Origin: an uncultured archaeon
Lineage (GTDB): Archaea; Aenigmatarchaeota; Aenigmatarchaeia; GW2011-AR5
Assembly: GCA_964373255.1 (NCBI GenBank)
Contig: CAYJTG010000003.1
Location: 25,759 to 89,758 of the forward strand
DNA length: 64,000 nucleotides
Reading direction: 5' to 3'
Made by a program: the position numbers and the translations under genes. Below are positions 18,156 to 63,650 of this stretch, one piece after another (position 1 is the first letter of the stretch; the number at the start of each line of letters is the position of its first letter). Under the pieces are notes generated by a model. It was not told where the DNA came from. It searched no databases and was given only the letters and a program-made list of their open reading frames with translations.

Positions 18156-18172
18156 AATGAAGAAGTGATGTT

Positions 18173-18748
18173 ATGAACTACCTAGAGGAAAAAATGAATC
18201 TTCATAAAAAAATGGTTGATTTATTGGATTTGAAATCAATAGAAAGGGTTGCGGATGCGATATCAAAATGCTATAGAAGCGATGGCAAACTATTGATATT
18301 CGGCAATGGCGGTTCTGCGGCCGATGCGCTTCACTTTGCTGCGGAGTTCGAGGGACAGCTATCATCTGTAGACAAAAATCGGAAAGCGCTGCCAGCCATA
18401 ACACCGTCTAATTTGTCTGCATTGACAGCCATAAGTAATGATTATAATTATGATACTAGCTTTCTCCGTTTTGTTCAAGCTAATGCAAGGTCTAGTGATG
18501 TTGTCGTAGGCATAAGTACAAGTGGCAATTCAAAAAATGTGATTAACGCAATAAAAGAAGCCAAGAACATTGGTGCAACAACAGTTGGCTTTACCGGTTA
18601 TGACGGCGGTCAGTTAAAAGACTTTGTTGACATCCTTATGAATGTTCCTGCTTCTAATGTTTCAATAATACAGGAAGGCCACATTATAGCTTATCATCGC
18701 GTATGTGCTCTTGTTATAAAGGAATTGTTTGGTTATGATGCATTATGA
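18173..18748 (+). CDS. gmhA: Phosphoheptose isomerase (sedoheptulose-7-phosphate isomerase), SIS domain.
   Basis: 'LIFGNGGSAADALHFAAEF' and 'VVGISTSGNSKNVINAIKEAKNIGATTVGFTGYDGG' closely match GmhA signature regions. Confidence 0.85.
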   Translation: MNYLEEKMNLHKKMVDLLDLKSIERVADAISKCYRSDGKLLIFGNGGSAADALHFAAEFEGQLSSVDKNRKALPAITPSNLSALTAISNDYNYDTSFLRFVQANARSSDVVVGISTSGNSKNVINAIKEAKNIGATTVGFTGYDGGQLKDFVDILMNVPASNVSIIQEGHIIAYHRVCALVIKELFGYDAL

Positions 18749-20013
18749 AGCCTGCAGTTTTTTTGGACAGGGATGGTGTAGTAATTACAGCAACGCACCT
18801 AGTTACGAAAATGCAGGAAGTCGAAATAGAAAAAAATGCGCCTGACGCAATAAGAATTTTTAATGATCTTGGATTCAAGGTAATAATAGTTACAAACCAG
18901 CCGCAAGTGGCCCGCGGCCTGTGCACAGAAGAAGACGTCATCAAGATAAATAAAAATATAAAGAAAACCATGGAAAAAGATGGAGCTATAATTGATGATA
19001 TATATTTCTGCCCGCATCATCCGGAGATGCATGAAGATGTGCCGGAGTATGCAAAAAAATATCGAATAGATTGTCGTTGCAGAAAACCGAAGACAGGGAT
19101 GATATTAGAGGCGGCAAAAAAACATGATATAGATCTTTCAAAATCATTTATGATCGGTGATCGCACGGTTGATGCGATGACAGGCAAGAATGCCGGCATA
19201 AAGACAATTCTAGTAAAAACTGGCAGAGCAGGAATGGATGGCAAATACGATACTATTCCTGATCATATATGCGCCGATCTGATGGAAGCTGCAAAACTTA
19301 TCAAAAGATCAGTTACAACCAAGGCTGTCATCCTAGCTGGTGGCAAGGGCGAACGCCTGATGCCATTAACAAAGGACATACCAAAGCCGATGATAGAAAT
19401 AAGCGGCAAGCCCGTCTTGCAGCATCATATAGGACTATTGAAGAAATACGGGATAAATGAAATAATAGTCTGTGCGAGCTATCTTATCGACAAGATAAAA
19501 GACTTTTTTGGAAATGGTAAAAATTTTGGTGTGCAAATATATTATCCCGATGAGCCTGAGCAGCTCGGCACAGGTGGCGCAATAAAGAACGCAGAACAAT
19601 TTATCAAAGGCTGCAAAAATTTTATTGTATTGAATGGCGATGTCGTGACAAACATAAATTTGTCTGCATTACTTGATTTTCACGAAACTAAGGACTGTTT
19701 AGCTACAATTGTTGTTCGTAAGAGTGATCATCCGATAGACAGCGATATCGTTCAGTTGGATGAGAACAGGGTTATAAGGTATATAGGCCGTGGGCAGAAA
19801 AAGCACAAAGTCGCAAATACAGGCATAATGATATTAAAAGCTAGCATACTCGGGCACATAAAGAAGGGTGTATCGAACATCGAGACAGACGTGGTGTTTC
19901 GCATGCTTGATGACTATAAAATTTGTGCATATTTTTCCAACGATTACATAAAGGACATGGGCACTTTTGACAGGCTTGAAAAGGTCCGTAGGGAATTTTC
20001 GCTGATTTCCTGA
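18745..20013 (+). CDS. gmhB-hddC: Bifunctional D,D-heptose-1,7-bisphosphate phosphatase (GmhB, HAD) fused to D-glycero-alpha-D-manno-heptose-1-phosphate guanylyltransferase (HddC-like nucleotidyltransferase).
   Basis: N-terminal 'AVFLDRDGVV', 'CPHHPE' and 'CRCRKPKTGM', which are GmhB motifs. C-terminal 'KAVILAGGKGERLMPLTKDIPKPMIEISGKPVL', a nucleotidyltransferase motif. Confidence 0.8.
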   Translation: MKPAVFLDRDGVVITATHLVTKMQEVEIEKNAPDAIRIFNDLGFKVIIVTNQPQVARGLCTEEDVIKINKNIKKTMEKDGAIIDDIYFCPHHPEMHEDVPEYAKKYRIDCRCRKPKTGMILEAAKKHDIDLSKSFMIGDRTVDAMTGKNAGIKTILVKTGRAGMDGKYDTIPDHICADLMEAAKLIKRSVTTKAVILAGGKGERLMPLTKDIPKPMIEISGKPVLQHHIGLLKKYGINEIIVCASYLIDKIKDFFGNGKNFGVQIYYPDEPEQLGTGGAIKNAEQFIKGCKNFIVLNGDVVTNINLSALLDFHETKDCLATIVVRKSDHPIDSDIVQLDENRVIRYIGRGQKKHKVANTGIMILKASILGHIKKGVSNIETDVVFRMLDDYKICAYFSNDYIKDMGTFDRLEKVRREFSLIS

Positions 20014-22813: not shown

Positions 22814-24346
22814 TCATTTCGCCCTACACATGTAAACAGACCTTAAATTAATCCCTCCTCTTGAAATTTCTTTTGTAAGCGTGCACTGCGCATCAAGGAT
22901 TTTTTCAATTTCTTTAGGTAGATTGCTATCATATGTAACATAAACACAGAACGCCAGATCTTGTTTTGTAACATTAGAAATAACAAATCCTGTTGGGTCT
23001 TTGTCAGGATCTACCGTTGATCGTGCAAATTCGCCTGTGACCTTTGAACAGTTTGATTTTACAAAATCTATGCCTTCCCTATAACCATCGAGCATCATTA
23101 TTTCGCTGTCTATGGGCTTGAAATTTGATATATTATCAAGCACATTGTAATGCAGCGTATAATTTGGATACGCATAAACAGACTCCGCGAAAACAGCTGT
23201 GCCAACCAAAAAAATAAACAGAATTTTCACATTGTTTTTCTTTATAAGGTCCAAGCTTCTTGCGCTTATTATGGCTATTAAAGGGATTATAGCAGTCATG
23301 TACCTGTATGTCCATCCATATCTCTGGAACCACAAAAGAATTAAAAATACGAAAAATATGAAAAGTACGCTTCTGTCTATGGATTTCCTCTTTCTAAATA
23401 TAGCTGCAAGTCCTAAAATCATAATGATTCCAAAAAATATGCTTTCTTTTGCCATAAAGATGAACAAATAGCCTATTACAGGTATGCTTATTATGTTGGA
23501 TTGTACGGATTTGCTGAAAACTTCCTGACGCCCGAATGCTGATGTAAGATACTCTTCTGGCGAGAGTATTATACCTGGCAAATTAAGTGTGAATGAATCG
23601 TCCCGTTGCGGAAAATCAACTACATTTCCATAGAAGTGGACCTTTATTGGATATAATGAAAATGGCCATATAATAAAAAAAGTCAATAGAGCTATCAAAA
23701 ATCCCTTCAAAAGAAAATTGTCTATCTCTATCCCTGTTCTTTGTTTTTTTTTGAACCTTATATTTTTTGAGATTATAGCGTGCAGAATGATAGCTATCAA
23801 AAGATAAAGAGACAGGTATTTTGTAAGAAGTGCCAGTCCTAAAAATATGCCGAATAAAACAATGTATTTTTTTGTTGGTTTTTTTATCATTGTAAAATAC
23901 GCAAAAAGTACCGTCAAATAGAAAAATCCAACTATGACTTCTGTCAGATAAAGTCTGCTGAATGTCAGATGTATAATAGAAAATGCTACTAGGATCGATG
24001 AGAAAATAGCAATATAAATATCGTAGTATCTTTTTGCAAAATAATAGGTGAGTCCTATAGTTGCTATACCAAATAAAGCTGGTATTATTCTTAATAAAAT
24101 CTCTGAAAATCCAAAGATACTATAAACAATAGCCCCCAAGTATTTCATGAAAGGCGGCGTAGCGTAATCATTAAAATTGTAGATGAAATTTCCACGTGCG
24201 TATTCTAGGGCTCCGCCAAAATGTGTTCCTTCATTCCAGCTAAATGCCTCCCAGTCAAGATTTGTCAGCCTCATGACAGCTGCGAGTAAAATTATAGCGA
24301 CTAAAACTGCGATTTCTATTTTATTGGTTTTTTTCATGTAAATCAT
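22814..24346 (-). CDS. GT-C-fold membrane glycosyltransferase of the PMT/ArnT type, which depends on polyprenol-phosphate-sugar donors.
   Basis: 510 aa. About 11 TM helices. N-terminal 'RLTNLDWEAFSWNEGTHFGGALEY' loop as in the GT39/GT83 family. Soluble C-terminal domain. Confidence 0.6.
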   Translation of the reverse strand: MIYMKKTNKIEIAVLVAIILLAAVMRLTNLDWEAFSWNEGTHFGGALEYARGNFIYNFNDYATPPFMKYLGAIVYSIFGFSEILLRIIPALFGIATIGLTYYFAKRYYDIYIAIFSSILVAFSIIHLTFSRLYLTEVIVGFFYLTVLFAYFTMIKKPTKKYIVLFGIFLGLALLTKYLSLYLLIAIILHAIISKNIRFKKKQRTGIEIDNFLLKGFLIALLTFFIIWPFSLYPIKVHFYGNVVDFPQRDDSFTLNLPGIILSPEEYLTSAFGRQEVFSKSVQSNIISIPVIGYLFIFMAKESIFFGIIMILGLAAIFRKRKSIDRSVLFIFFVFLILLWFQRYGWTYRYMTAIIPLIAIISARSLDLIKKNNVKILFIFLVGTAVFAESVYAYPNYTLHYNVLDNISNFKPIDSEIMMLDGYREGIDFVKSNCSKVTGEFARSTVDPDKDPTGFVISNVTKQDLAFCVYVTYDSNLPKEIEKILDAQCTLTKEISRGGINLRSVYMCRAK

Positions 24347-25278
24347 CTTTTTGATTTAAGCAAGCCAACGATTAATCCTGTAGCATACGCTATTTCCCGG
24401 ACAAATACTATCGTAAATAAGACGGGATAATAGCCAAGATTCTTTACTCTTAAAAGTATGTAAAAAGGTTTTAAAATGAAATAAAGAACGATGAGAATTA
24501 CCCAAATGAAAAGTGGAAATGTATTTGTTATTGACACCAGCAAAAGAATTATTGTAACAATAACAGAACCAAAAATAATTATATCATACGGCGTTATCAT
24601 GTCTTTGTGCATTTTTATCAAATCTATTTTTGAAATCCCGTTTCGATAGATCTGATTAAATACGCCCCCCAGATTTTTTCTCCTAGAATGATAAACCTTT
24701 ATGTCTGGATTAAATTTTATATTAAAGCCGTTCTTAAAAAGCCGGTGAATGAATTCTGGCTCTTGAAGTCCTACCAGTTTTCTGTTAAAATTAGATTCTT
24801 TGAATATGTTGCTCCTGAATGCTATGTTGCATGCACGCAATCTGTTGCAAGCATCATTCCCATATAGAGTGTTTTTAGGAGTCCTGACAAAATCTATCAT
24901 AAATAAAGCATTTTGAAACTTCGTAGATTTATCAGCATCTATTATATCATCGCCTCCAACCACATCTATATCATCATTCTTGAATTCGTTTACCAGATTG
25001 CTTAGCCAGTCTTTTGATGCTGTACAATCATCGTCTATAAATGCTACTATATCGCCTTTAGCACGTATAGATCCTATATGATAGGCATTACCAATCGTAT
25101 TCAAATCATCTTCAAACCACTTACACCCTAATTTTTTTGCCAATGATATGACACTGTCATTATTTGGAGAAACAATAATTGTTTCGTAAATTTTTGTAGA
25201 CTGCTTTTTCAAACTTTTTATACAGTTTATTAGATCTTTTGAGTTATTTCTTGTAGGGACTACAACAGAAACTTTCAT
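24343..25278 (-). CDS. GT2-family glycosyltransferase with C-terminal TM helices.
   Basis: 'VSVVVPTRNN', 'DDDC' (DxD). Hydrophobic C-terminal 80 aa. Confidence 0.75.
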   Translation of the reverse strand: MKVSVVVPTRNNSKDLINCIKSLKKQSTKIYETIIVSPNNDSVISLAKKLGCKWFEDDLNTIGNAYHIGSIRAKGDIVAFIDDDCTASKDWLSNLVNEFKNDDIDVVGGDDIIDADKSTKFQNALFMIDFVRTPKNTLYGNDACNRLRACNIAFRSNIFKESNFNRKLVGLQEPEFIHRLFKNGFNIKFNPDIKVYHSRRKNLGGVFNQIYRNGISKIDLIKMHKDMITPYDIIIFGSVIVTIILLLVSITNTFPLFIWVILIVLYFILKPFYILLRVKNLGYYPVLFTIVFVREIAYATGLIVGLLKSKR

Positions 25279-26897
25279 GCAATTACACCTGTAACATTAT
25301 ATATTAAAACGGAGTACGCCACCATATCATAATGTGTATAATTTTCAAGCCATCCATAGCAATTTTTATCGAGTGTGAGAAAAAATACACCAACGATATG
25401 TATACCATTTTGAGGTATGCATTTTTCTCTTACATACGATTTAACATAATTATTTGTATAAGATTCAGGAAGTGGTAGTGATAAATAAGCTACTGTTATA
25501 TTTTTCTCTTTTGTGTAAGACGAAACATATTTTAGCCACTGCCCCCAATCCACGTCTGTATCACTTAAATAAAGATAGCCATTTTTTGGTCCACCAACAA
25601 ATTCATTAAAGTAAGATATATTATATGGTAGTATAAGCAGTGCTTCTACTACACTCCACAAAATAAGTAAAATAACAACAATATAAAATAATCTTTTTTT
25701 ACTACCCGAAAATTTTACATGCAAAATTTTACCTAGCATAACAAACATGAAAGGATACATAGGTAAGAGATGCCTAAGACCTATATTTAGTTTTAATAAT
25801 GACAATGCAACAAACAATACAAATAGGGGCAATAAGAGGAAAATTTCATTATAGAAATCAAACTTAATTTTTCTCAAGGCAAATGTAAAAAATAATAGAA
25901 CAAACAGTATTAGAGGTATAGTAGATTTGATTAAAAAAGCTAAGATATAATAGTGAATCCAGCCAGTACTAGAGTATTCGCCAAATAAATATGCGCCGTG
26001 CCCTACGATTTTATGATAGAAATTGTACCCAAATGCAGTAAAATAACTCGTCGCAGGAAGAGGAACATCCATTAAAGTTATAATAGTATTTTTATTACTG
26101 CTAAATGTTTGATTGATGAAATCTTGCGATTTCTCGATAGAATGAACAGTATTATTAATCGTAGACATCTGAAATCCATAAAATGCCCATATTACGATAA
26201 ATGATATTAGATAATAGATTATAATTAATCTTATATTTTTTCGCACCGATCTGAAAATATATAAAAATAGAAACAAGGTTATTGGTATTAATAAAAGTGC
26301 AGTAAATTTACTCAAAAGGGCAAGTCCTAAAAATAAACCTGCTATTATTGAATATTTAATTGTTTTATTGCTGCTAAATTTCCAAAAAACATACATTGCT
26401 ATGAATATAAATGTAGCAGCCACGATGTCTGTGGTTGCCAGAGAGCTATGTGCCAATATAGTTGGTTCAAAGCTGAATAGTGCAAGAACAAACAAAGCTG
26501 CTTTGTCACCATATAGTTTTCGAGCCCATATAAAAATAAAAACACCTAAAATTAAGGACGTAAAAGCAATAGGTAATCGTGTAATAAATAAATAGTAATC
26601 TATTTCATAAGAGTTTGCAATGTTTGACATGTTGAATGGTTTATTTTGCCATACAGGATTATTGTCAAAATAGAGGAAAAAACTGTTAATATAATAAGCC
26701 AGTGGTGGATGAAACCTGTATGCAAAAGGTGAAAAATCTCCGTGCTGTACAGTATAGCGTCCTGTACCTGGATAGAATTGTTCGTCAAGGACGGGCGATT
26801 GTGATGAAATTATGTAAATAATTTGCAAAAGCATGAAAATCAGAATTAATGCTGCGATAATTTCTGTCCTTTTTTTTGTGATATGAACTAAATGCAT
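25275..26897 (-). CDS. GT-C-fold membrane glycosyltransferase of the PMT_2/ArnT type, a second paralog.
   Basis: 540 aa and polytopic. N-terminal 'LDEQFYPGTGRYTVQHGDF...YRFHPPLAYYI' loop typical of PMT_2. Confidence 0.6.
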   Translation of the reverse strand: MHLVHITKKRTEIIAALILIFMLLQIIYIISSQSPVLDEQFYPGTGRYTVQHGDFSPFAYRFHPPLAYYINSFFLYFDNNPVWQNKPFNMSNIANSYEIDYYLFITRLPIAFTSLILGVFIFIWARKLYGDKAALFVLALFSFEPTILAHSSLATTDIVAATFIFIAMYVFWKFSSNKTIKYSIIAGLFLGLALLSKFTALLLIPITLFLFLYIFRSVRKNIRLIIIYYLISFIVIWAFYGFQMSTINNTVHSIEKSQDFINQTFSSNKNTIITLMDVPLPATSYFTAFGYNFYHKIVGHGAYLFGEYSSTGWIHYYILAFLIKSTIPLILFVLLFFTFALRKIKFDFYNEIFLLLPLFVLFVALSLLKLNIGLRHLLPMYPFMFVMLGKILHVKFSGSKKRLFYIVVILLILWSVVEALLILPYNISYFNEFVGGPKNGYLYLSDTDVDWGQWLKYVSSYTKEKNITVAYLSLPLPESYTNNYVKSYVREKCIPQNGIHIVGVFFLTLDKNCYGWLENYTHYDMVAYSVLIYNVTGVIA

Positions 26898-39066: not shown

Positions 39067-40008
39067 CTATACATTATTGCGCCAATATCCAAGCATATCT
39101 TTAAGTGTTTTGTCTATAGGTATAACAGGCGCCCATCCTATGGACTTGATTTTTGTGTTGTCACCGACAAATATCGGATCCTCCAGAATGCGCAATTTTT
39201 TCGGGTCCTTCTTCACCTTCACCCTCGCATCAGAAAATGAAACCAATTTATTTAGCAAATCTCCGACCTTGTATCTATTCCCTGTGCAAACATTGTAAAC
39301 GTCTCCAAATACGCCTTTCTTGGCAAGCAGCCATACGGCCTTTACAGCATCTCTTACATCGGTATAATCTCTTATACCTTCTAAATACCCGACGTCTGCT
39401 GCATTTCTTTTATTATTCTCTACCTCTGCAATCATCTTTGAAAAATCGGAGCATGCGTCATTGGTCTTTTTTGGCCCTGTTACATTGAAAAATCTGGCGC
39501 GAATTATTTTCATCTTGTACGCATGCCAGTAAAGATAAGCAAGCATATCAGTTCCTATTTTACTGACTGCGTAGGGGGAGGATGGCCTAAATTCTTTTGT
39601 TTCTTTGACTGGTATTTCATTTTCGTAATTGAGTCCATACTCTGCAGAAGAGCACGCAACGATTATTATTGGATTAATATTAGCCGCCCTGACAGCTTCA
39701 AGCAAATAAAGCGTGCCTATTATATTTGTTCTGAACGTATTTTCAGGATCCTTCCAAGATGGCATAACGAAGCTCTGCGCAGCTAGATGAAATATATAAT
39801 CGGGGGCAACCTTTTTGATTATTCTTTTCAACTTTTGTTTATCTGTTATATCGCAAACTTCAAGTTTCAGGTTTTTTTCAATATGTGATATGTTTTTTAT
39901 ATTTTCGTTTTTGTGAAGTATTCCATAAACTCCAATATTTTCTGATATAAGCAAATCAGCCAGGTGCGACCCTATAAACCCACCTATGCCAGTTATCAAT
40001 GCTTTCAT
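39067..40008 (-). CDS. NDP-sugar 4,6-dehydratase-family SDR. GDP-mannose / GDP-heptose 4,6-dehydratase-like.
   Basis: 'ALITGIGGFIGSHL', 'SSAEYG', 'SPYAVSKIGTDMLAYLY'. 313 aa. Confidence 0.6.
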   Translation of the reverse strand: MKALITGIGGFIGSHLADLLISENIGVYGILHKNENIKNISHIEKNLKLEVCDITDKQKLKRIIKKVAPDYIFHLAAQSFVMPSWKDPENTFRTNIIGTLYLLEAVRAANINPIIIVACSSAEYGLNYENEIPVKETKEFRPSSPYAVSKIGTDMLAYLYWHAYKMKIIRARFFNVTGPKKTNDACSDFSKMIAEVENNKRNAADVGYLEGIRDYTDVRDAVKAVWLLAKKGVFGDVYNVCTGNRYKVGDLLNKLVSFSDARVKVKKDPKKLRILEDPIFVGDNTKIKSIGWAPVIPIDKTLKDMLGYWRNNV

Positions 40009-41522
40009 TATTTCACTACCTTGAAAAGAAATTTTAATATCCTACCTGAAACCTTGATATTAATCTCGGACAACATTTTTATATCTGACTTTTTGACGAC
40101 TTTCGAAAGCAAGATAAAAACCAAATACACTGTAAAACCAATTATCAAGCTTATAATTGCCTCTAGAATTGATTCGGTAACCAGAGTATTTTTGACAAAA
40201 AATATTATTATAGTTGCTATAATGCCGCCTACGAAAACCTTTACCATTTCGGAAATGCTGAAACCTATTTTTATGTATTTCCCGAGAGATTTGTAGGACA
40301 TAGTTATCGCCAACAAATAAGAAATCATAGAGGATATCGCAGCGCCTATTATTCCTATCAAATTAATGAGCAACAAATTAAGTGTAAAATTTATAGCCGC
40401 AATGAAGATAATTATCCTCGTAGTTATTTCTGGTTTACCTATACCTAAAAGGCTTATGTACATTATAGAAAATATACTCTGAAATATAGCGCTTACAGTC
40501 AGTATTTGAAGCAAAGGTGCTGCATTTATATAAGATGGCCCAAACACGAGATTTAATGTAATCTCAGGAAATGTTATTAGTATTATTGCAAATGGTATAA
40601 TAAAAATAAATAAAAATTTAAGCAGCAATGAAATGCCAGAATCTAAAGCGTACCTTTTATCAGAGTTCCATATGGCAGAAACTGATGGAAGCAGAACTAT
40701 TCCTATAGCACTAGAAAACACAAGCAGAAATTGCGCAGTAGGCATAGCAACCTGGTAAAGCGCTACATCATTCAGAGAAAGGAAAAATGCTATCATAAGA
40801 CTGTCGATAGACGCTATTACTGTAGCCGCAAAAACTCCGGCAAATACGGTAAGGCTGAATTTCAATAGCTTTTTGGCTACGCGTGGTCGCACAGATTCTG
40901 TGTCATACGTCCTGTATCGTTTAAAAACGTAAAATACTAGAGCGGCATTTATTACAGCTCCAGAAATTAGATAGCTTAAAGCGACACCACTTGCTCCAAG
41001 AGAGAGAGAAAACGATAAAATAAGAAACCAAATAATTAAAAGTCTGACAGGTTCAATGAGTGCATATGATTTGATCTTATTCAAACCTTGAAGAACTGAT
41101 TTAAGGACGACAAATCCGATAAGAAATTCTATACTCATTATTTGTACAATTATTTTTGCTGATGCGTCATGAAAAAAATTTACAGCTATTATATCTGATA
41201 AAAAGAACAGCGTGACAGATATTATTAAACCTACAAAAAATTGCGAAATAAATGAATAATATATAATAGACTTTAGATTGGCGAATTCCTTTTTACTCTG
41301 AAATTCCGATATAAATTTGGTGACAGCTTGGCCAAGACCAAAATCCTTAAAGACCCCAAAAAAATATAAAAATGCTAGCACAGAATAGAACATACCAAAA
41401 TCTAAAACACTGAGGTTACGGGCAAGATATATTCTTAATCCATAACCTAGCAATGTCCCTGCTAGACCTATGATCAATACAGTAAATGTGCTTTTAGCAA
41501 TATGCTCTTTATAGTTTTCCAT
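40008..41522 (-). CDS. MOP-superfamily oligosaccharide flippase, Wzx-like.
   Basis: 504 aa. About 12-14 TM helices. The Wzx-typical N-terminus 'NYKEHIAKSTFTVLIIGLAGTLLGYGLRIYLAR'. Confidence 0.8.
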   Translation of the reverse strand: MENYKEHIAKSTFTVLIIGLAGTLLGYGLRIYLARNLSVLDFGMFYSVLAFLYFFGVFKDFGLGQAVTKFISEFQSKKEFANLKSIIYYSFISQFFVGLIISVTLFFLSDIIAVNFFHDASAKIIVQIMSIEFLIGFVVLKSVLQGLNKIKSYALIEPVRLLIIWFLILSFSLSLGASGVALSYLISGAVINAALVFYVFKRYRTYDTESVRPRVAKKLLKFSLTVFAGVFAATVIASIDSLMIAFFLSLNDVALYQVAMPTAQFLLVFSSAIGIVLLPSVSAIWNSDKRYALDSGISLLLKFLFIFIIPFAIILITFPEITLNLVFGPSYINAAPLLQILTVSAIFQSIFSIMYISLLGIGKPEITTRIIIFIAAINFTLNLLLINLIGIIGAAISSMISYLLAITMSYKSLGKYIKIGFSISEMVKVFVGGIIATIIIFFVKNTLVTESILEAIISLIIGFTVYLVFILLSKVVKKSDIKMLSEINIKVSGRILKFLFKVVK

Positions 41523-47182: not shown

Positions 47183-48361
47183 TTAGACTGTCTCGTTGAA
47201 CCGTACCCTGAAAAGCTTGACCTCTCCGCCCCAGCTATTTACGAATTCGAAACTGTTTAGACCTACGCCGTTGAACAGAAACATCCTTGTAAACAGCGCA
47301 TTTTCCAGTTCTGGTGTCATAAAGAGGAGTGTTTGCCTTGAACCGTCTAACCATAAGGTCCCCTTGACCTCTGCCGCTGCGTCGTTATACAAATTGAATG
47401 CACCCTGACGGTCGAAGTACCATAATTTCTCTACGCGAAGAAGGTTGTTTTGCTGCTGCAGAAAAGGCCTGAGCGTGCCATTTGTCTCGTACAAAACAAA
47501 CGCGCTGTCTTGTGCAACCCTGTAATAGAATGCTATAGCGTTCTGGTCTAAAACAGGTCGCGCGGATTCTAGCGGTATTATGACGTAGTTGTGCCGCTGC
47601 CCATAGTTCGGCGCATTTGTCGGGTTCCACGTGGCGAAATAAGTCCACCACTGGCTTTTACCTATAAGATCCGAGGACGCGATATAGTAGAGTTCATCGC
47701 AGTCGGGCTTTTTATAATCTTTCAGAATTTTCACAGCTAACGTCTCGTTGCCTGTGAACAGTGTTGTTCCGATGTCCTGTATTCGTGCCCTTGTAACAGT
47801 TCCGTCTTTATAAAACAATACGCGGTTTATGCCGTGGTCTTGCTGCTCAATAACGATCCCGGTTTTTGTTTCGTCGGTTGGCAATGTTATAGTAGAACCC
47901 TGAGATGCTCCATCAAATACAATAGCACGCCGAGCTATGCCAGTTATAAAATGCCCTGGGTCCCAGTACGTTGCGATGACGGCGCATTCCTTTGTATTGT
48001 TCTTTATCCAGTTAAGTGCCTCCCACCAGTTGTCCGAAAGCACGGTACCAGAACACTCTGAGATTCTTAGACTATCGAGGTAATAGACATTCACAAAAAA
48101 TATGAATATTATAACCAAGAGAACGAATGAAAACAGTTCTCTGTTATTTATCCTTTTGCCAAAACGTGCACCTATGGCTATAAGAAATATAACAGCGGCA
48201 CCTATATAGAGCTGTAATGAATATCCGTCAATCCAGTCCTGGGACGTCATGGAACCACAGGTTGTTTGTACGCCACTAAAGAGAATCAACAGCACATATA
48301 TGATTACTATACTGATGATGCCTGCAGTAAATTTATTCGCGTTTATGTCCATGCTAATCAC
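47183..48361 (-). CDS. aglB: C-terminal part of AglB/STT3 oligosaccharyltransferase. Three TM helices followed by a periplasmic catalytic domain with a WWDYG-type motif.
   Basis: 'TYWDPGHFITGIARRAIVFDGAS' lies immediately after the third TM helix, as the WWDYG block does in STT3/PglB/AglB. The reading frame is offset from the upstream TM ORF. Confidence 0.55.
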   Translation of the reverse strand: MISMDINANKFTAGIISIVIIYVLLILFSGVQTTCGSMTSQDWIDGYSLQLYIGAAVIFLIAIGARFGKRINNRELFSFVLLVIIFIFFVNVYYLDSLRISECSGTVLSDNWWEALNWIKNNTKECAVIATYWDPGHFITGIARRAIVFDGASQGSTITLPTDETKTGIVIEQQDHGINRVLFYKDGTVTRARIQDIGTTLFTGNETLAVKILKDYKKPDCDELYYIASSDLIGKSQWWTYFATWNPTNAPNYGQRHNYVIIPLESARPVLDQNAIAFYYRVAQDSAFVLYETNGTLRPFLQQQNNLLRVEKLWYFDRQGAFNLYNDAAAEVKGTLWLDGSRQTLLFMTPELENALFTRMFLFNGVGLNSFEFVNSWGGEVKLFRVRFNETV

Positions 48362-49541
48362 TCATGTTCTTATCCTCACCGCTAGCCAAACGGAACAATT
48401 TAGAAAATAAAATTCCTGCAGCTATAGCTACCGGGGCTGAAAACAGTATTGTAAATCTTATAGCAACAAGTGTTGCCAAGAATGGGCCAACAAACCATAT
48501 GGCGAGCAAAATAATTGTGTCAAGGTGCTGCCTCTTTTTTATAAACGAAAATAATAGGTAGATAATACAGAATATCATGAGGAAAAATGGCGAGCCTATG
48601 CGGTTTATTATTTCCTTGGCGTCAGAAGGGTTCTGAAGCTCAGCGACAGACACATAAACATTCGGGAAGGTTCTTGCTTCGCTTTTGATTTCCGGAAACT
48701 GGATTGGTCCTGTTATCGTGGAAACGATAGGGTTGACGCCGAAAACCGGAACGGTAAAGGCGAAGAACAGCAAAATAATTATGACATAAGAAAATATCGG
48801 AGACCTATAATTGTGTAATGTTTGCCTTGCATTTTTTGTTTTTATGAAACTTGTAACGATCTTTAGAAACACAAATCCTGTTATCAGCCAAACAACAAAC
48901 CAGAATCCGCTCCATGTATAGTACCACGCTGTAAGTGCTAAGCCGGCTGCAATTGAAAGTACGATTGTTTTCTTTCGAAATCCTTGTTCCAACGATATTT
49001 TATGCGCTACAACAAAAAGTGCCATGACAACTAGAGGCATCAGAAGGACTATTCCGTCGCTGTCCGGGTCGCCGCCAAGCGTTCGCGCTATAATCGATGC
49101 GTCAAACATGATAAATGCCGCTGCCAGCACACCCGCCTTCCTGTCGTACAGTGTTTTGGCCAAAAAATACATTGGTATAGCCATCAGGGCAGCAAGAAAT
49201 GCTGGAAACCATATAAGAAACTGAAATAGTGACGTGCCTTGCGAAAATATATGGTAAAACATATATGCGTATGCGCTGAAATAGACGTAGAAATCTTGGC
49301 TTATAACTCTGTCAACACCAAAAGGCGCCTGCGCAAGTTCATTTCTTGCTGGAAGTGCTCCACCGTTGTTAACTATATCTTCTATATCTCTGGCAAAATT
49401 GTACGAGTCAATATTTCTGAGGTAAGGCCACCTGTAATCTATAAGTCTTATATACATCCCAAGAATCATGATTACAACAAGAGCTATGATCACCCAGCGT
49501 TTACTCAGAAATGCCAACAACGTGTTCTTGTTTATTAACAT
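48354..49541 (-). CDS. aglB: N-terminal membrane domain of AglB/STT3 oligosaccharyltransferase (about 10 TM helices).
   Basis: 395-aa polytopic ORF with first-loop acidic motifs ('RNIDSYNFARDIEDIV', 'GGDPDSDG'). It ends in a TAG that overlaps the start of the downstream catalytic-domain ORF by 8 nt in another frame. Confidence 0.5.
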   Translation of the reverse strand: MLINKNTLLAFLSKRWVIIALVVIMILGMYIRLIDYRWPYLRNIDSYNFARDIEDIVNNGGALPARNELAQAPFGVDRVISQDFYVYFSAYAYMFYHIFSQGTSLFQFLIWFPAFLAALMAIPMYFLAKTLYDRKAGVLAAAFIMFDASIIARTLGGDPDSDGIVLLMPLVVMALFVVAHKISLEQGFRKKTIVLSIAAGLALTAWYYTWSGFWFVVWLITGFVFLKIVTSFIKTKNARQTLHNYRSPIFSYVIIILLFFAFTVPVFGVNPIVSTITGPIQFPEIKSEARTFPNVYVSVAELQNPSDAKEIINRIGSPFFLMIFCIIYLLFSFIKKRQHLDTIILLAIWFVGPFLATLVAIRFTILFSAPVAIAAGILFSKLFRLASGEDKNMSD

Positions 49542-49600
49542 ATTTGCATATGTTTGAGAAAAATGTTTAAATACCGATTATTTAGATAGGATTCCATATT

Positions 49601-49700
49601 CGTATGATGATGGTCGACGTGAGAGGCATTATCTGTCGATAATGCCTCTAGCTGACATATACGTCAACTGACGTATATGTCTACGTCGACCATCATACTT
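49601..49700. repeat. Structured palindromic element: an outer inverted repeat enclosing two perfect 12-bp hairpins with 4-nt loops.
   Basis: Outer arms CGTATGATGATGGTCGACGTG (49601-49621) and TACGTCGACCATCATACT (49683-49700). Hairpin 1 AGAGGCATTATC-tgtc-GATAATGCCTCT (49622-49649). Hairpin 2 GACATATACGTC-aact-GACGTATATGTC (49654-49681). Confidence 0.6.
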
Positions 49701-49716
49701 TAATGGAATTCCATCA

Positions 49717-50829
49717 TTATTTGCCAATAATTCTTGTTATCTTTGGCAAAAGAAACCGTGCAAGTTTGAATTTCGGGAGTTTTTTCCATTCGTCGCTGAG
49801 CTTGTCGTAATCAAAGCCGTCGAGCATGGACAGGACGTAACCAAAATCTTTGAACATCCCATCGATTTCTTTGTTTGTCAGTTTTCTGTATATCATTCTC
49901 AGCATATACTGCTTCTCTATTTCCCATGCTATATCCTTTTTCCACATTTTTTCATAGCTGCTGAGAAAATGTTTGCTGAACGTACCTTCTTTCAGCGCGC
50001 TGTTTATTACATCAGCGGCGTGCTGCGCCGCCATCATCGAGTACATTATTCCGCCTCCAGTCAGCGGCTTATTCTGGCCGCACGCGTCGCCTATCAGGAG
50101 CGCGTTGTTCTCGTAGCTTTTTGTGTAAGTGTACGGTATCATGTAGGCGTACATCTTACCCGGTGGCAGGTACGTTTTCTTGACAAAATAGTCAAAGTAA
50201 TCTTTTGGCCGTACGCACGTCATTATTCCGTACTCGTTGTTTTGCGGTATAATCCAAGAAAAGAAATCCGGCGAGAAATATTTGTTGAAAAATACGCTTA
50301 TGTCGCCTTCCATTTTTTGCCGTGTCTTCACCATTATACCCAGCGCGACTTTTGGATTTTCTATATTCATTGCACGCCTTACAACAGAATTAGTGCCGTC
50401 ACACCCGACGACAATTTTTGCCCTGTATTCTTCGTCTTTTGTCTTAACGACCGCACAGTTTTCAGCAAACTTGACCGATTCGACGGTTTCATAAGAAATG
50501 TCTGCATTTTTCCTTGCGTTTTTTCTAAGAGACCTGCCGAACATTTTCCTTCTGAGTATGTATGCGTAAGGCTCGTCTGACTGAAGGGAAAACGTGTGCC
50601 CGGAAGGCGATACGCATTCCATTTTGTTTATTCTGAATTTTACAAGCTTTTTGGCAGAACCACCAAAAATGTTGTCGAACCTTGTAGAAACTATGCCGCT
50701 GTCCTTTGGAATTACTTTTCTGTTTTGCTCCAAAATAAGCACGCTATACTTTGGGTTTATCCTTGACGCCAGGTAGCTTCCAGCGATACCGGCACCGGCA
50801 ATAACAACGTCGTACATGACAACACTCAT
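49717..50829 (-). CDS. FAD-dependent geranylgeranyl reductase family protein. Candidate polyprenol / dolichol reductase.
   Basis: 'YDVVIAGAGIAGSYLA' FAD-binding site. 370 aa. GGR/FixC-like. Confidence 0.72.
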   Translation of the reverse strand: MSVVMYDVVIAGAGIAGSYLASRINPKYSVLILEQNRKVIPKDSGIVSTRFDNIFGGSAKKLVKFRINKMECVSPSGHTFSLQSDEPYAYILRRKMFGRSLRKNARKNADISYETVESVKFAENCAVVKTKDEEYRAKIVVGCDGTNSVVRRAMNIENPKVALGIMVKTRQKMEGDISVFFNKYFSPDFFSWIIPQNNEYGIMTCVRPKDYFDYFVKKTYLPPGKMYAYMIPYTYTKSYENNALLIGDACGQNKPLTGGGIMYSMMAAQHAADVINSALKEGTFSKHFLSSYEKMWKKDIAWEIEKQYMLRMIYRKLTNKEIDGMFKDFGYVLSMLDGFDYDKLSDEWKKLPKFKLARFLLPKITRIIGK

Positions 50830-50877
50830 TCACTAAAAATTATTAAAGATTATAAGTGCAAGTTGCTTGTAATGCTC

Positions 50878-50889
50878 CCGTAATTACGG
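50878..50889. promoter_or_regulatory. Perfect 12-bp palindrome CCGTAATTACGG, about 30 nt upstream of secF. Candidate transcription-factor site.
   Basis: Read directly from the sequence. Located in the GGR / secF divergent intergenic region. Confidence 0.25.
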
Positions 50890-50919
50890 CAAGGGATTAA
50901 AAGATGTGCATAGAAGTGC

Positions 50920-51768
50920 ATGTATATGTTCACCGACAAGCACTGGAAAGCATTCATGTGGATAACAATAGTGTTCCTTATCTTTTCTGTTGCGCTGCTG
51001 GCAAACAACATAATAACAACGGGTTCTTTTCTGGAAAGGGATATAGACCTGAGCGGTGGAAAGTTAATAACGGTCGAGGTGAAAGATGCTGACATAGGTA
51101 AAATAAAATCTGCAGTTCCGTATGCAAATGTTCGCCTAACGTCAGGCGCGACAAGGTTCCTGCTTGTGGAAATGCCTTTTGGTGCCGATGAAAATGACGT
51201 GCTCGAACAGATAAGAAATATTGCTGTCCTGCAGGGTGAGCCTAGCATACGCATCGTAGGTCCTTCAATCGGCAACATTTTTTTTCAGCAAGCACAGACG
51301 GCTATGATCGCTGCATTTGTGCTGATGGCGATTACGGTTTTCATGCTCTTCAGGGCAGTAGTTCCGTCGTTGATCGTGCTTTTTGCCGCACTGACAGATA
51401 TTCTGGGCACGATGGCTGTACTTTCTATAATAGATATGCCGTTGTCATTGCCCGTGATAGGTGCGCTACTTGCCTTGATAGGTTATTCTGTCAGCACCGA
51501 CATACTGCTGACAACAGAACTGCTAAAAAGCGGCAGAACCGACTATTCTAAAAGCATAAGAAAAGCTGCGAAAACCGGGATAACCTTAACCGGGACTGCG
51601 CTGATAGCTTTGGTGTGTATGTTCTTCCTAGCTGGTTCGACTGTGATACAGCAGATTGCCCTTGTAATGCTCATAGGCCTGGTAATAGACATGCCTGCTA
51701 CGTGGTTCACGAATGCCGGTGTGCTTCGGTTGTGGATAGAGAGAAAGCAAAGGGGTGCTCAGCGATGA
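50920..51768 (+). CDS. secF: Protein-export membrane protein SecF.
   Basis: 282 aa. Six TM helices and a periplasmic loop. Overlaps the secD start (ATGA). Confidence 0.82.
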   Translation: MYMFTDKHWKAFMWITIVFLIFSVALLANNIITTGSFLERDIDLSGGKLITVEVKDADIGKIKSAVPYANVRLTSGATRFLLVEMPFGADENDVLEQIRNIAVLQGEPSIRIVGPSIGNIFFQQAQTAMIAAFVLMAITVFMLFRAVVPSLIVLFAALTDILGTMAVLSIIDMPLSLPVIGALLALIGYSVSTDILLTTELLKSGRTDYSKSIRKAAKTGITLTGTALIALVCMFFLAGSTVIQQIALVMLIGLVIDMPATWFTNAGVLRLWIERKQRGAQR

Positions 51769-53381
51769 ATACGTTTTTGAAAAATCCTAGAGTGCTCATA
51801 TGGATTTTTTTCATAGTTGTTTCTATAATTGTTATAGCGCCAAATCCAAATCCACATGGTTTTGTTGTTGTCTCCGTCAACAGAACAATAGTCAACAATA
51901 TTGATCTTGGAGAAGTGATTTACACAGTAGACGACAAACCTGCAACAGCCGACATGTTTAACGATAATTATTTTGGTATAGTCAAAATTGGCACGGGCAA
52001 AGGAATAAAGTATGTGAATCTAAACGGTACGCTCGGCATCGGTGCAAACAGCGTGCCTTCTACAAATATAAGGTTCGGGCTTGACATAAAAGGTGGTGTC
52101 CGTGCCATCCTCGAGCCCAACGTTTCTACAAACGCAACTTTAGATCAGGTAATATCCACGCTTGAGGAGAGAATCAACTTCTATGGTCTGCGCGAGTCTG
52201 TCTTCAAACCGATTTATTACGAGGGTAAAGGCTTCATAGAAGTAAACATAGCAGGCGGCACAAAAGAGGAACTCAAAAATCTTATAGAGAGTCAGGGAAA
52301 CTTCGAGGCCAGGATACCGTTTACCGTATCTGTAACGGGCAACCAATTCGCGCTGAAACTGGACAAAAATTATGCAGTGCCTGTAGAAAATTCTTCCATA
52401 GTTATCGACGGCAAAAATGTACATACCGGCGAGCCGTTTTATTTGTCGGGCATTGATTTCATGCTCAACGACATAAATTCCGGCCGCGTTAACATCACCG
52501 CAAAAGTCTTTGGTGGTGATGACGTAGTCACAGTATTTCTAGATCCGCAGAGAACAAGAATAGAAAAGCTGGCAGACGGCTACAGCTGGACGTTCTCAGT
52601 TCAGCTGAGCAAAACAGGCGCGCAGAAATTTGCATACGTCACAAACAATATCAACCAGCTCGCCACAGGATACCTGGAATCGCCGATAGTCTTTTACCTG
52701 GACGGTAATTTAGTAGATTCTCTCAACATAGCATCATCTCTTAAAGGCAGAACAGAAACAGAGATCGCAATTAGCGGCGGCGCCGACACACAAAAAGAAT
52801 CCTCCCGTGAGATGGTACAGCTGCAGTCGATACTGCGATCGGGCGCGCTCCCGACTACCGTTGAGATTGTCCAGCTTGACACTGTTTCTCCAACCCTTGG
52901 CGCAGGGTTCCTGAAGAGTGCTATCTTTGCTGCGCTTGCTGCGCTGCTTGGCGTCATTATTTTTGTATCGCTGCGGTACAGAAAGCCAAAGCTGGTCGTA
53001 CCGATGATTTTTATATCAATAACAGAAATACTTATTGTCATTGGCGTGTCGACCATTATTGGATGGACGGTTGACCTAGCCGCTATAGCAGGCATAATCG
53101 CGTCAGTCGGCACAGGCATAAGCGACCAGATAATAATTCTTGACCGCGCATTAAGAAAAGAGGGGGAATACGAAGAAACGCTTCATGAAAAAATAAAGAA
53201 GGCGTTCTTTGTCGTTTTCGGCACAGCCGGCACTGTTATTGCGGCGATGCTGCCGCTTATGTTTATCGGCTTCGGGCTGCTGCGCGGCTTCGCACTCATA
53301 ACGATAATAGGCGTGCTTGTAGGAATCCTGGTAACGCGCCCTACCTACGGCGTTATTATTGAACGCCTCATGAAGGAATAG
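51765..53381 (+). CDS. secD: Protein-export membrane protein SecD.
   Basis: Start taken at the Met of MNTFLKNPRV, overlapping the secF stop. Large periplasmic domain followed by a C-terminal six-TM bundle. Confidence 0.82.
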   Translation: MNTFLKNPRVLIWIFFIVVSIIVIAPNPNPHGFVVVSVNRTIVNNIDLGEVIYTVDDKPATADMFNDNYFGIVKIGTGKGIKYVNLNGTLGIGANSVPSTNIRFGLDIKGGVRAILEPNVSTNATLDQVISTLEERINFYGLRESVFKPIYYEGKGFIEVNIAGGTKEELKNLIESQGNFEARIPFTVSVTGNQFALKLDKNYAVPVENSSIVIDGKNVHTGEPFYLSGIDFMLNDINSGRVNITAKVFGGDDVVTVFLDPQRTRIEKLADGYSWTFSVQLSKTGAQKFAYVTNNINQLATGYLESPIVFYLDGNLVDSLNIASSLKGRTETEIAISGGADTQKESSREMVQLQSILRSGALPTTVEIVQLDTVSPTLGAGFLKSAIFAALAALLGVIIFVSLRYRKPKLVVPMIFISITEILIVIGVSTIIGWTVDLAAIAGIIASVGTGISDQIIILDRALRKEGEYEETLHEKIKKAFFVVFGTAGTVIAAMLPLMFIGFGLLRGFALITIIGVLVGILVTRPTYGVIIERLMKE

Positions 53382-61390: not shown

Positions 61391-61800
61391 TACATTATGA
61401 CAACCACGCCAAACAGTAATGATTCAACCACAATATAAGTAAAAACAACCCAAAGTAATTACACCATTATTTCTCTTGGAGGATATATAAACATATCTCT
61501 ACTGGAAATCAACGTTACTGAAAATATAGTTTCAAAACAAGACAGCTCCCCTATATTTCTTGTGGAACTTTTAAACAAACAATTACATAAATAACACTGT
61601 TATAAGAAAGAAAGGGTACGTTTTGTGTTTCTTTTCTTCAAAACTTGTTCTCACCACTAGTCGTTCATTAGAAATAATGGGGTCTGCTATACAGAAATGC
61701 GTATAAATTGCGTGATACCGTACTAATTCCCGATAAAACCAATAATAATCCAACAACACAATAACAGACCAAACCAATTTGTTCTTGCTTATTCCACAAT
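61391..61800. promoter_or_regulatory. Candidate replication origin (oriC): an AT-rich intergenic region next to orc1 carrying ORB-like TCTnnTGGA repeats.
   Basis: Direct repeats TCTCTTGGAGG (~61472), TCTACTGGAAA (~61498) and TCTTGTGGAAC (~61558). An inverted copy ATTCCACAAT (~61791) lies across an AT-rich stretch (61570-61790). The arrangement sits directly upstream of orc1. Confidence 0.4.
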
Positions 61801-62202
61801 TTCGAACTTGAAACCATAGTTGATTACCCCAGCGGCCCCGTCTTCGTATAACTTCCTGAAGACCATCCTTACAGGCTTTCCAATAACTATATTTTTATGA
61901 TCACCCACAATATGGCTGCTTACAACAGGCCCCTCGTCCAGTTGCACAAGGGCCATGGCATACGGGACATGTTTTTCAAAGCCCTCTGGCGCAGTATGGA
62001 TGACTGTGTAGGATAAAATCTTACCGCTGCCAGAAAACTGAAACTTCTCAATTTCCTCATGGCCGCAGCCCATGCAAACCGACCTTGGCGGAAAATGCGT
62101 CTGGTTGCACGATTTGCACCGTGTGCCTACCAATGCATATCTATGCTTCGCCAGTCTCCACGACATTGCAACAGATCCACTGTGTGACATGATTATCAAC
62201 AA
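61789..62202 (-). CDS. DUF35 Zn-ribbon / OB-fold protein, the scaffold partner of archaeal thiolase and HMG-CoA synthase.
   Basis: 'CKSCNQTHFPPRSVCMGCG' rubredoxin-like ribbon followed by an OB-fold region. 137 aa. Confidence 0.8.
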   Translation of the reverse strand: MLIIMSHSGSVAMSWRLAKHRYALVGTRCKSCNQTHFPPRSVCMGCGHEEIEKFQFSGSGKILSYTVIHTAPEGFEKHVPYAMALVQLDEGPVVSSHIVGDHKNIVIGKPVRMVFRKLYEDGAAGVINYGFKFEIVE

Positions 62203-62477
62203 AACTTTGGAGAACGCCCAGCATAGATTTCCGTTTCATTTATCGGGTACATTAAAAGGTTTTTTCTAATATTAGGATTTTTGCTAGGCACACACGCATA
62301 AATTACACCTTCTACAAATTTGTGGTAAAAATAGCGTATTTTTGAGGTATGTCCGCCCCACTTTACAGTTACAATACTATCAGACTCTAAGTGCCTACCA
62401 TTACTATCTGGCGAACCCCAATGTCCAAAGGGTGGCCATCCATTAAATCTGTATTTCCATGTATAATTACCAATCAT
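62196..62477 (-). CDS. Hypothetical Trp-rich small protein, 93 aa, lying between the thiolase and DUF35 genes.
   Basis: The ORF fills the whole gap. It has no recognised motifs. Coding status is uncertain. Confidence 0.25.
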   Translation of the reverse strand: MIGNYTWKYRFNGWPPFGHWGSPDSNGRHLESDSIVTVKWGGHTSKIRYFYHKFVEGVIYACVPSKNPNIRKNLLMYPINETEIYAGRSPKFC

Positions 62478-62480
62478 ATC

Positions 62481-63650
62481 CTACACCTTCCTCGGTTCCT
62501 TTCCGAAAATATTTACTACAGCCGTCGCGCCAGAGCCGCCAATGTTCAGGTTCAGCCCGATTTCTGCCCCATTGATTGGGTTGAAGCACTCGCCACGCAG
62601 CAACTTTGCTATTTCAACGACCTGCCTGACGCCTGTTGCGCCGACAGGATGCCCGCAGACCTTCAGGCCACCGCACGTATTTGTTGGAATATCACCATTA
62701 ATATCTATAGCACCATTTTCAACAAACCTGCCACCTTTACCCTTTTCGACAAAGCCCAAGTCTTCCATCGCGATTATTTCATTTATGGTAAAGCAGTCGT
62801 GAACCTCTGTTGCGTCGATCTTGTTGTGATCAAAATTAGCCATTTCAAACGCCTGCTTTGCGGCAGCTTTTGTCGCCAGCAGTTCTGTGTAAGACTTCCT
62901 GTCATGCAGCGCAATAGAATCGCTGCCCTGGCCAGTACCAAGAACATAAATCGGCTGAACATCCAAATTCTTCGCTACATTTTCACTTGTAAGCACAACA
63001 GCAGCTGCGCCGTCCGTTATAGGCGAACAATCATACAACCTTAACGGATCAGCAATCATCATTGACGTAAGCGCGTCCTCAAGCGTAATAGCCATCTGGA
63101 ACTGTGCAAGCTTGTTTTTCAGCCCGTTTCTGTGGTTTGTCACGGCTACAGATGCAAGCTGTTCAGATGTTGTGCCGAACTCGTGCATATGCCTTCTTGC
63201 CATCAGTGCATACAGTCCGGCAAACGTTAATCCAATCGCTGCCTCCCATTCCTGGTCGCCTGCAGCTGCAAGCGTTGTTAATGCCCCAGATCCATGTACG
63301 TCAGTCATCTTCTCGACGCCGACAACAAGCGCAGCGTCTATATGACCAGAAGCAACAGCAAAATAAGCGTCACGAAACGCCACCGAGCCAGAAGCGCAGG
63401 CAGCCTCACAGCGCGTTGCAGGAATGTTACCAAGGCCGAGATTATCAGCAATAAGCGCGCCAAGATGTTCCTGGCCGACAAACCGGCCGGCTGACATGTT
63501 GCCGACGTACAGGCTCTGTATTTTTCCTTTTTCAATTTTCGCATCCCTTATCGCGCCAAGCCCTGCTTCTACGCCCAAATCACGCAGCGATTTATCCCAC
63601 AGCTCGCCGAATTTAGTCTGGCTTGCGCCGACAACAGCAACGTTTCTCAT
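62481..63650 (-). CDS. Archaeal-type thiolase (acetyl-CoA C-acetyltransferase).
   Basis: 'VAVVGASQTKFG'. Active-site Cys in 'CEAACASGSVA'. C-terminal 'NTCGGLKVCGHPVGATG'. Confidence 0.85.
   Translation of the reverse strand: MRNVAVVGASQTKFGELWDKSLRDLGVEAGLGAIRDAKIEKGKIQSLYVGNMSAGRFVGQEHLGALIADNLGLGNIPATRCEAACASGSVAFRDAYFAVASGHIDAALVVGVEKMTDVHGSGALTTLAAAGDQEWEAAIGLTFAGLYALMARRHMHEFGTTSEQLASVAVTNHRNGLKNKLAQFQMAITLEDALTSMMIADPLRLYDCSPITDGAAAVVLTSENVAKNLDVQPIYVLGTGQGSDSIALHDRKSYTELLATKAAAKQAFEMANFDHNKIDATEVHDCFTINEIIAMEDLGFVEKGKGGRFVENGAIDINGDIPTNTCGGLKVCGHPVGATGVRQVVEIAKLLRGECFNPINGAEIGLNLNIGGSGATAVVNIFGKEPRKV

Follow-up and report, generated by a model that had tools for sequence, protein, structure and literature searches.

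The minus-strand gene at 49717-50829 of a 64-kb window of Aenigmarchaeota DNA (the window being the whole stretch analyzed, 64 kb of the 123-kb contig CAYJTG010000003.1) encodes a flavoenzyme of the geranylgeranyl reductase (GGR) family in which an aspartate occupies the position of the flavin-proximal cysteine of canonical archaeal GGRs. Judging from the sequence, we assign a probability of about one half to the reading that the product of this gene serves its lineage as a general FAD-dependent prenyl (geranylgeranyl/polyprenyl) reductase, with Asp replacing the Cys. As the probable sole GGR, the enzyme would saturate the C20 chains in precursors of archaeol-type lipids and may, like HVO_1799 in Haloferax, act in the same way on the isoprenes at the omega end of the glycan carrier dolichyl phosphate. 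The gene lies next to aglB, which encodes the oligosaccharyltransferase, and the original prediction had taken this position to mark a reductase of the carrier lipid rather than of membrane lipids. In the reading that we favor, the location upstream of aglB would instead reflect a conserved genome architecture at the edge of a glycosylation island, not an operon.

The open reading frame (ORF) as called comprises 370 aa. The actual start is most likely the ATG at 50817, yielding a protein of 366 aa, because the identical public protein P0001 has this length and all homologs begin with MYDV. The product is a clear homolog of the NCBIfam family TIGR02032 (GG-red-SF; E 1.3e-43) with a score of 149.8 bits, slightly under the curated cutoff of 158.8, and its only Pfam matches are Lycopene_cycl, FAD_binding_3 and Trp_halogenase. 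The closest PDB folds to an AlphaFold (AF2) model of the protein (pLDDT 92.8) were Ta0516 (3oz2) with a TM-score of 0.84 and the Sulfolobus enzyme Sa-GGR (3atq and 4op entries such as 4opc) with 0.79-0.80, while FixC, halogenases and monooxygenases ranked behind both archaeal GGRs. Ta0516 and the Sulfolobus GGR were also the best solved structures in a search with a profile of the family. The gene is thus genuine and, based on the model, its product is predicted to adopt the three-domain GGR fold, which agrees with its earlier assignment to the GGR-family flavoenzymes. Proteins of this family are currently annotated as "NAD(P)/FAD-dependent oxidoreductase".

Both FAD motifs, GxGxxG (GAGIAG, residues 12-17) and LxGD (LIGD, residues 245-248), are present and (nearly) invariant in the family alignment. 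The cavity motif PxxYxWxFP is found as P187-D-F-F-S-W-I-I-P195, with Phe for Tyr and Ile for Phe; within the Asp-for-Cys variant, hereafter family A, W192 is invariant and P187 and P195 are conserved at 90% or more. The FAD-switch motif RxxFD is partial (R94-K-M-F97-G), its Arg and Phe being kept in at least 90% of the members and its Asp not. The window protein is thus like Ta0516 and Sa-GGR in fold, FAD motifs and a PxxYxWxFP-type cavity (PDFFSWIIP), and differs from them in sequence (18-20% identity), in length (366 versus 397-453 aa), in carrying Asp for Cys47 and in retaining RxxF only. A polyprenol reductase of the steroid 5-alpha-reductase type (SRD5A3/DFG10) was not matched; the Pfam hits were to flavoproteins only and the model is that of a soluble flavoprotein. 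No ferredoxin or electron transfer flavoprotein partner, as found with some GGRs, was present among the neighboring genes.

Cys47 is conserved throughout archaeal GGRs, lies close to the flavin and is essential in the Sulfolobus enzyme (Rao & Driessen 2024, PMC10821996); the window protein lacks it. D43 aligned with Cys47 in a MAFFT alignment that included the enzymes of Thermoplasma and Sulfolobus along with 50 further homologs, and an hhalign comparison of family A with family B, a second Aenigmarchaeota GGR family described below, also paired D43 with Cys. A single HMMER alignment to Sa-GGR placed a gap at the D43 position and paired the Cys with S44; either way, family A has no Cys. The stretch K42-D43-S44-G45 was invariant in all 28 aligned members. 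Asp is found at the Cys47 position in 149 of the 197 retrieved proteins and Cys in 40, and the Asp-type sequences, a clade of about 150 members, are monophyletic in a neighbor-joining tree, with a Cys-type clade of Aenigmarchaeota from hot springs and vents as their sister group. All close homologs among the matches listed (47-64% identity) belong to the DPANN phylum Aenigmarchaeota. Against TIGR02032, other family-A members reach 131-152 bits, whereas family-B proteins pass its cutoff with 208-225 bits. The window protein reached 72.8, 35.9 and 48.1 bits with the digeranylgeranylglycerophospholipid (DGGGPL) reductase equivalog models NF041080, NF041160 and NF041385, whose cutoffs are 580, 780 and 700; these models are lineage-specific, and family B falls under all three as well. 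Because it lacks Cys47 and scores below the curated cutoffs of canonical archaeal GGRs, we set the protein apart as a variant of GGR, in which D43 presumably takes over the role of the Sulfolobus-essential Cys next to the flavin.

The only genetic precedent for an action on the glycan carrier is HVO_1799 of Haloferax volcanii, a GGR-family protein that has been connected with the saturation of dolichyl phosphate at its omega isoprene (Naparstek et al. 2012, as summarized in PMC10821996). The original prediction had invoked a Haloferax paralog dedicated to dolichol; HVO_1799 is, however, the general GGR of this organism, and its deletion abolishes the saturation of dolichol phosphate and of diether phospholipids alike (Rao & Driessen 2024, PMC10821996). 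The Haloferax precedent therefore supports one promiscuous GGR for both lipid classes, not a dedicated paralog. HVO_1799, which we liken to the window protein by its published description, is unlike it in being the main GGR of its organism, which also saturates diether lipids, and is, in that summary, not reported beside aglB. Partial alpha-saturation of dolichol remains in the deletion mutant, and four other GGR paralogs of Hfx. volcanii are uncharacterized (PMC10821996). That a GGR homolog can specialize in polyprenyl reduction is shown by mycobacterial HepR (Abe et al. 2022, cited in PMC10821996), which is summarized as reducing omega and E units in a polyprenyl diphosphate of mixed Z,E configuration. 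HepR, again likened by its published description, differs from family A in being bacterial, and family A has no linked cis-prenyltransferase. To our knowledge, the enzymes of archaeal dolichol saturation are known only in part, with one genetic case for the omega position and none for the alpha position, and most GGR paralogs are uncharacterized.

We examined how far the position of the gene is conserved in a synteny scan of one genome per GTDB species. The scan returned 80 loci, about 48 of them family A, and used peptide patterns specific for family A, which makes it uninformative on family B. In most family-A loci a collinear block was found that runs Cdc6-phosphoesterase-PolB-TctA-NAC-SecD-SecF and continues, in divergent orientation, with GGR and further downstream AglB. 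secF is the tightest conserved neighbor among about 40 species, being divergently adjacent (< 600 nt) in 34 of the 39 loci with enough upstream flank. A downstream aglB on the same strand lies within 10 kb in 22/30 loci and within 500 nt in 6/30; a more inclusive count of direct adjacency gives 12/33. About 30 Aenigmarchaeota species, at 39-64% identity, share the same-strand order GGR-aglB, and the two genes are between 52 nt and 6.6 kb apart. In the family-A lineages that diverge most (L043, L045 and L048), secDF is kept and no aglB lies nearby, the downstream genes being a nucleotidyltransferase, LigT and NrdD. Because of these locus counts and of the deep lineages without aglB, the adjacency is real but looser than the secF link: it is conserved within a sub-clade and set in a block of unrelated housekeeping genes.

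Several genes are recurrently inserted between GGR and aglB in loci L005-L037, namely a PF03706 LPG_synthase_TM-like/flippase-like protein (20 loci, opposite strand), a GT2 glycosyltransferase of about 231 aa (16), a PMT_2 GT-C enzyme (15), a methyltransferase (6) and a B12-radical-SAM protein (4). One locus (L039, QMSS01000037.1) is labeled Thermoplasmata and shows the full Aenigmarchaeota SecDF-GGR-AglB synteny, and is probably mis-binned or mis-labeled. One metagenome-assembled genome (SMAG_U8047; DATDUC01, L034 and L037) holds two family-A copies with 45% and 52% identity to the window protein, which suggests a mixed bin or a duplication.

In the window itself, aglB is the next gene downstream of GGR on the same strand, at a distance of 175 bp, and the structured element that had been proposed between them is present (49585-49715, minus strand, between the GGR stop and the aglB promoter). 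By folding, this spacer of about 130 nt forms a three-way junction of perfect 12-14-bp palindromes, with an outer stem and two perfect 12-bp hairpins (49622-49649 and 49654-49681), a minimum free energy of -66.9 kcal/mol and z = -11.6. An Rfam scan assigned it to no family and gave only two chance-level hits, both within the GGR coding region, and no further copies of its palindromes occur in the window. The structure is not conserved in relatives, whose spacers measure about 50-130 nt. Contigs assembled from public short reads of this organism (Logan) end at the spacer, 35 nt past the GGR stop. A TATA-like box, GTATTTAAAC, lies about 35 nt ahead of the aglB ATG. Because of the hairpin-rich spacer and this separate box, co-transcription of GGR and aglB appears unlikely, and we infer that they form separate transcription units. 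The GGR promoter would lie in the divergent intergenic region of about 100 bp between GGR and secF (50830-50925), which the two genes would share and in which AT-rich TATA-like boxes (CTTATAAT / TTTAATAATTTTT) are found 20-40 nt upstream of the GGR ATG. A 142-aa ORF at 50850-51278 was rejected as a gene, as it runs antisense to secF and what looks like its conservation in relatives stems from secF.

Whether the gene is the only GGR of its genome bears directly on its substrates. A single GGR homolog was found in the 64-kb window and no second one in any 20-kb family-A locus; a cis-prenyltransferase was likewise found neither in the window nor in the family-A loci. None of 11 identified family-B assemblies was among 47 family-A assemblies, and among the matches listed no large contig was common to the two families. 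One candidate for their co-occurrence in a genome, MEM5791592 (family A) with MEM5792285 (family B), was discarded: the proximity of the accessions is suggestive, but the contig sizes argue for neighboring assemblies. In Data Set S1 of Li et al. 2021, the count of K17830 GGR never exceeds one in 24 Aenigmarchaeota genomes, and two carriers of family A, AR5 (L014) and DRTY-6_2 bin 201 (L045), have one GGR each together with the geranylgeranylglyceryl phosphate and digeranylgeranylglyceryl phosphate synthases (GGGPS and DGGGPS). Because they encode GGGPS and DGGGPS, AR5 and bin 201 need a membrane-lipid GGR. The table is not decisive because it contains false negatives for CG genomes. We consider it fairly probable that family A is the sole GGR of its genomes, and the balance of evidence leans towards the situation that the original prediction had itself named as incompatible with a dolichol reductase, a genome without any other GGR homolog.

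Family B, found by a search with a Cys-type Aenigmarchaeota protein, gave more than 1000 matches. Its members, such as P0187, P0240 and P0277, resemble family A in phylum, in their short length (~355 aa) and in full-length homology (hhalign probability 100%, 30% identity). Unlike family A, family B keeps the Cys (P-V-Q-C-T-G), matches PF22578 GGR_cat, passes TIGR02032 and never adjoins secF or aglB. In several loci (L085 4334-7668, L097 2303-5142 and L094/L095 3307-5790) the family-B GGR overlaps a cis-prenyltransferase gene or begins 1 nt after it, and further neighbors are geranylgeranyl diphosphate synthase (GGPPS), isopentenyl-phosphate kinase (IPK) and AcnX, or a CDP-alcohol phosphatidyltransferase. 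Judged by neighborhood, a role as polyprenol/dolichol reductase is more plausible for family B than for the gene beside aglB. A GGR homolog of Chloroflexota is followed by a cis-prenyltransferase less than 300 nt away (L055 10001-11972), so the pairing occurs in bacteria too.

Several observations weigh against a general prenyl reductase. The protein stays below the TIGR02032 cutoff and far under every DGGGPL-reductase equivalog model, and since it lacks the cysteine that is reportedly essential in Sa-GGR, its chemistry or substrate may differ from those of canonical GGRs. The order and strand of GGR and aglB are kept in 32 of the 33 loci that show both, and the genes inserted between them are those of dolichol-linked glycosylation, which points to more than random synteny. 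For the genome of the window itself, the single-copy status was judged from 64 kb of the 123-kb contig, and the table of Li et al. is not fully reliable, as it gives 0 GGR for CG genomes that carry a family-B protein (P0254).

Part of this evidence would fit a dedicated dolichol or polyprenol reductase, in which family A serves only the carrier lipid of AglB and another GGR or the scavenging of host lipids covers the membranes; in our judgment this is unlikely. That aglB repeatedly lies less than 10 kb away in the same orientation, and directly adjacent in 12/33 loci, speaks for it, as do the intervening genes, which include GT2 enzymes resembling Dol-P-sugar synthases, PMT_2 GT-C enzymes and flippase-like PF03706 proteins, all of polyprenyl-phosphate-dependent glycosylation, and the Asp-for-Cys exchange and sub-threshold scores mark family A as atypical. 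DPANN archaea often lack lipid synthesis. Given this, a sole GGR could serve dolichol only, and in a lipid-scavenging organism a GGR count has to be read together with GGGPS and DGGGPS. The CG genomes were scored 0 for GGGPS/DGGGPS by Li et al. and carry the family-B GGR P0254, and in other family-B assemblies GGR sits in cis-prenyltransferase/GGPPS clusters. Against a dedicated enzyme, no second GGR was detected in the window, loci or assemblies compared, the family-A genomes AR5 and bin 201 encode GGGPS/DGGGPS, and neither the window nor the family-A loci contain a cis-prenyltransferase. Moreover, the linkage to secF is stronger than that to aglB, which is missing near the gene in deep lineages, the structured spacer and the probable separate promoters stand between the two genes, and the Haloferax precedent is a dual-function GGR. 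Of the original prediction of a carrier-lipid reductase by association, the association itself therefore holds, in that the order with aglB recurs and glycosylation genes are inserted, while the step from it to a dedicated function is weakened by the stronger secF link, the probable separate transcription and the lack of a second GGR in the DNA compared.

Conversely, the gene might encode a GGR for membrane lipids only, its vicinity to aglB being the inherited gene order of the Cdc6-PolB-TctA-NAC-SecDF-GGR-AglB block with no link to glycosylation. In its favor, most loci preserve the entire block of unrelated housekeeping genes in collinear order, the spacing between GGR and aglB is variable, and in the window both genes have a core-like GC content (41-44%) unlike the 30-40% of the adjoining glycosylation island. 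We nevertheless regard this reading, too, as unlikely: GGRs are promiscuous, the sole archaeal knockout shows an action on dolichol as well (PMC10821996), and order and orientation relative to aglB are kept despite repeated insertions. Quite improbable, in our view, is the more elaborate proposal that family A is a DPANN-specific, re-engineered Asp-type GGR dedicated to the dolichol carrier, perhaps to its alpha-isoprene, in a module with a two-subunit AglB. Very unlikely is a GGR-fold flavoenzyme that through the Cys-to-Asp exchange acts on another substrate or by another chemistry, for example on another polyterpenoid or as the archaeal alpha-isoprene reductase of dolichol: such a change would fit the Asp of all family-A members in place of a residue essential in Sa-GGR and conserved in archaeal GGRs, the partly retained RxxFD (RKMFG) and the alpha-saturation that persists in the Haloferax mutant and requires another enzyme, but the cavity motif and the overall fold are conserved, the sequence contains no pointer to a specific alternative substrate and some uncharacterized GGR paralogs also lack the Cys (PMC10821996).

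The aglB gene next to the putative general prenyl reductase is itself unusual in consisting of two ORFs (47183-49541, minus strand), the ATG of the second lying 1 nt after the stop of the first. Part 1 (48354-49541, minus strand) encodes the STT3 N-terminal transmembrane part (395 aa, PF02516 E 2e-27) with DPD at residue 158; part 2 (47183-48361, minus strand), a separate ORF, encodes three transmembrane helices together with a soluble domain in which the WWDYG motif takes the form YWDPG. The window shares the position of the break with all 29 related Aenigmarchaeota loci (among L001-L047; 37-72% identity) in which both halves are visible. A conserved GEDKxxxD closes the first ORF ahead of its stop, and the second has an ATG of its own and a Lys-rich N-terminus; in L038, the two halves are divided by an in-frame stop, after which a Met follows. 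The sequences thus indicate that the split is a conserved two-gene oligosaccharyltransferase and not a sequencing error, and no paper describing a split AglB was found in our literature search.

On the other side of GGR, domain matches and synteny identify the divergent plus-strand genes secF (about 50926-51768) and secD (about 51765-53381), beyond which follow NAC, TctA, PolB, phosphoesterase and Cdc6. Downstream of aglB, domain matches and GC content delimit a 27-kb glycosylation island (20033-47151) with a GC content of 30-40%, compared with 44-50% in the background. It encodes GT2/GT4 glycosyltransferases, sugar epimerases/dehydratases, a UDP-Glc dehydrogenase, four methyltransferases, two PMT_2 GT-C enzymes (22814-24346 and 25275-26897) and a Wzx-type flippase (40008-41522). 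The island probably represents a surface-glycan locus that is hypervariable or was acquired horizontally. Beside the island, a GHMP kinase, an SIS-domain isomerase and a HAD-nucleotidyltransferase fusion (17121-20013) resemble a pathway for nucleotide-activated heptose. At the window end, a thiolase and a DUF35/OB-fold partner were identified by domain matches (61789-63650, minus strand). By analogy with the known thiolase/HMGCS/DUF35 complex, we take this pair to be the acetoacetyl-CoA thiolase module with which the archaeal mevalonate pathway begins, the HMG-CoA synthase partner presumably being located past the window end; the presence of the pair suggests that the organism produces isoprenoid units itself.

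Saturation of polyprenols by GGR paralogs has already been suggested in published work, and in the literature that we searched we found no description of the Asp-type clade, of its secF/aglB synteny or of the cis-prenyltransferase-GGR operon of family B. If the clade is the housekeeping GGR of its lineage, the finding is mainly an annotation correction, and adjacency to aglB alone is weak functional evidence. A phylum-restricted GGR clade with Asp in place of a supposedly essential Cys is at the same time a natural experiment on the GGR mechanism. Its conserved place at the edge of an N-glycosylation locus makes the question of whether the enzyme reduces membrane lipids, the glycan carrier or both directly testable by heterologous expression.

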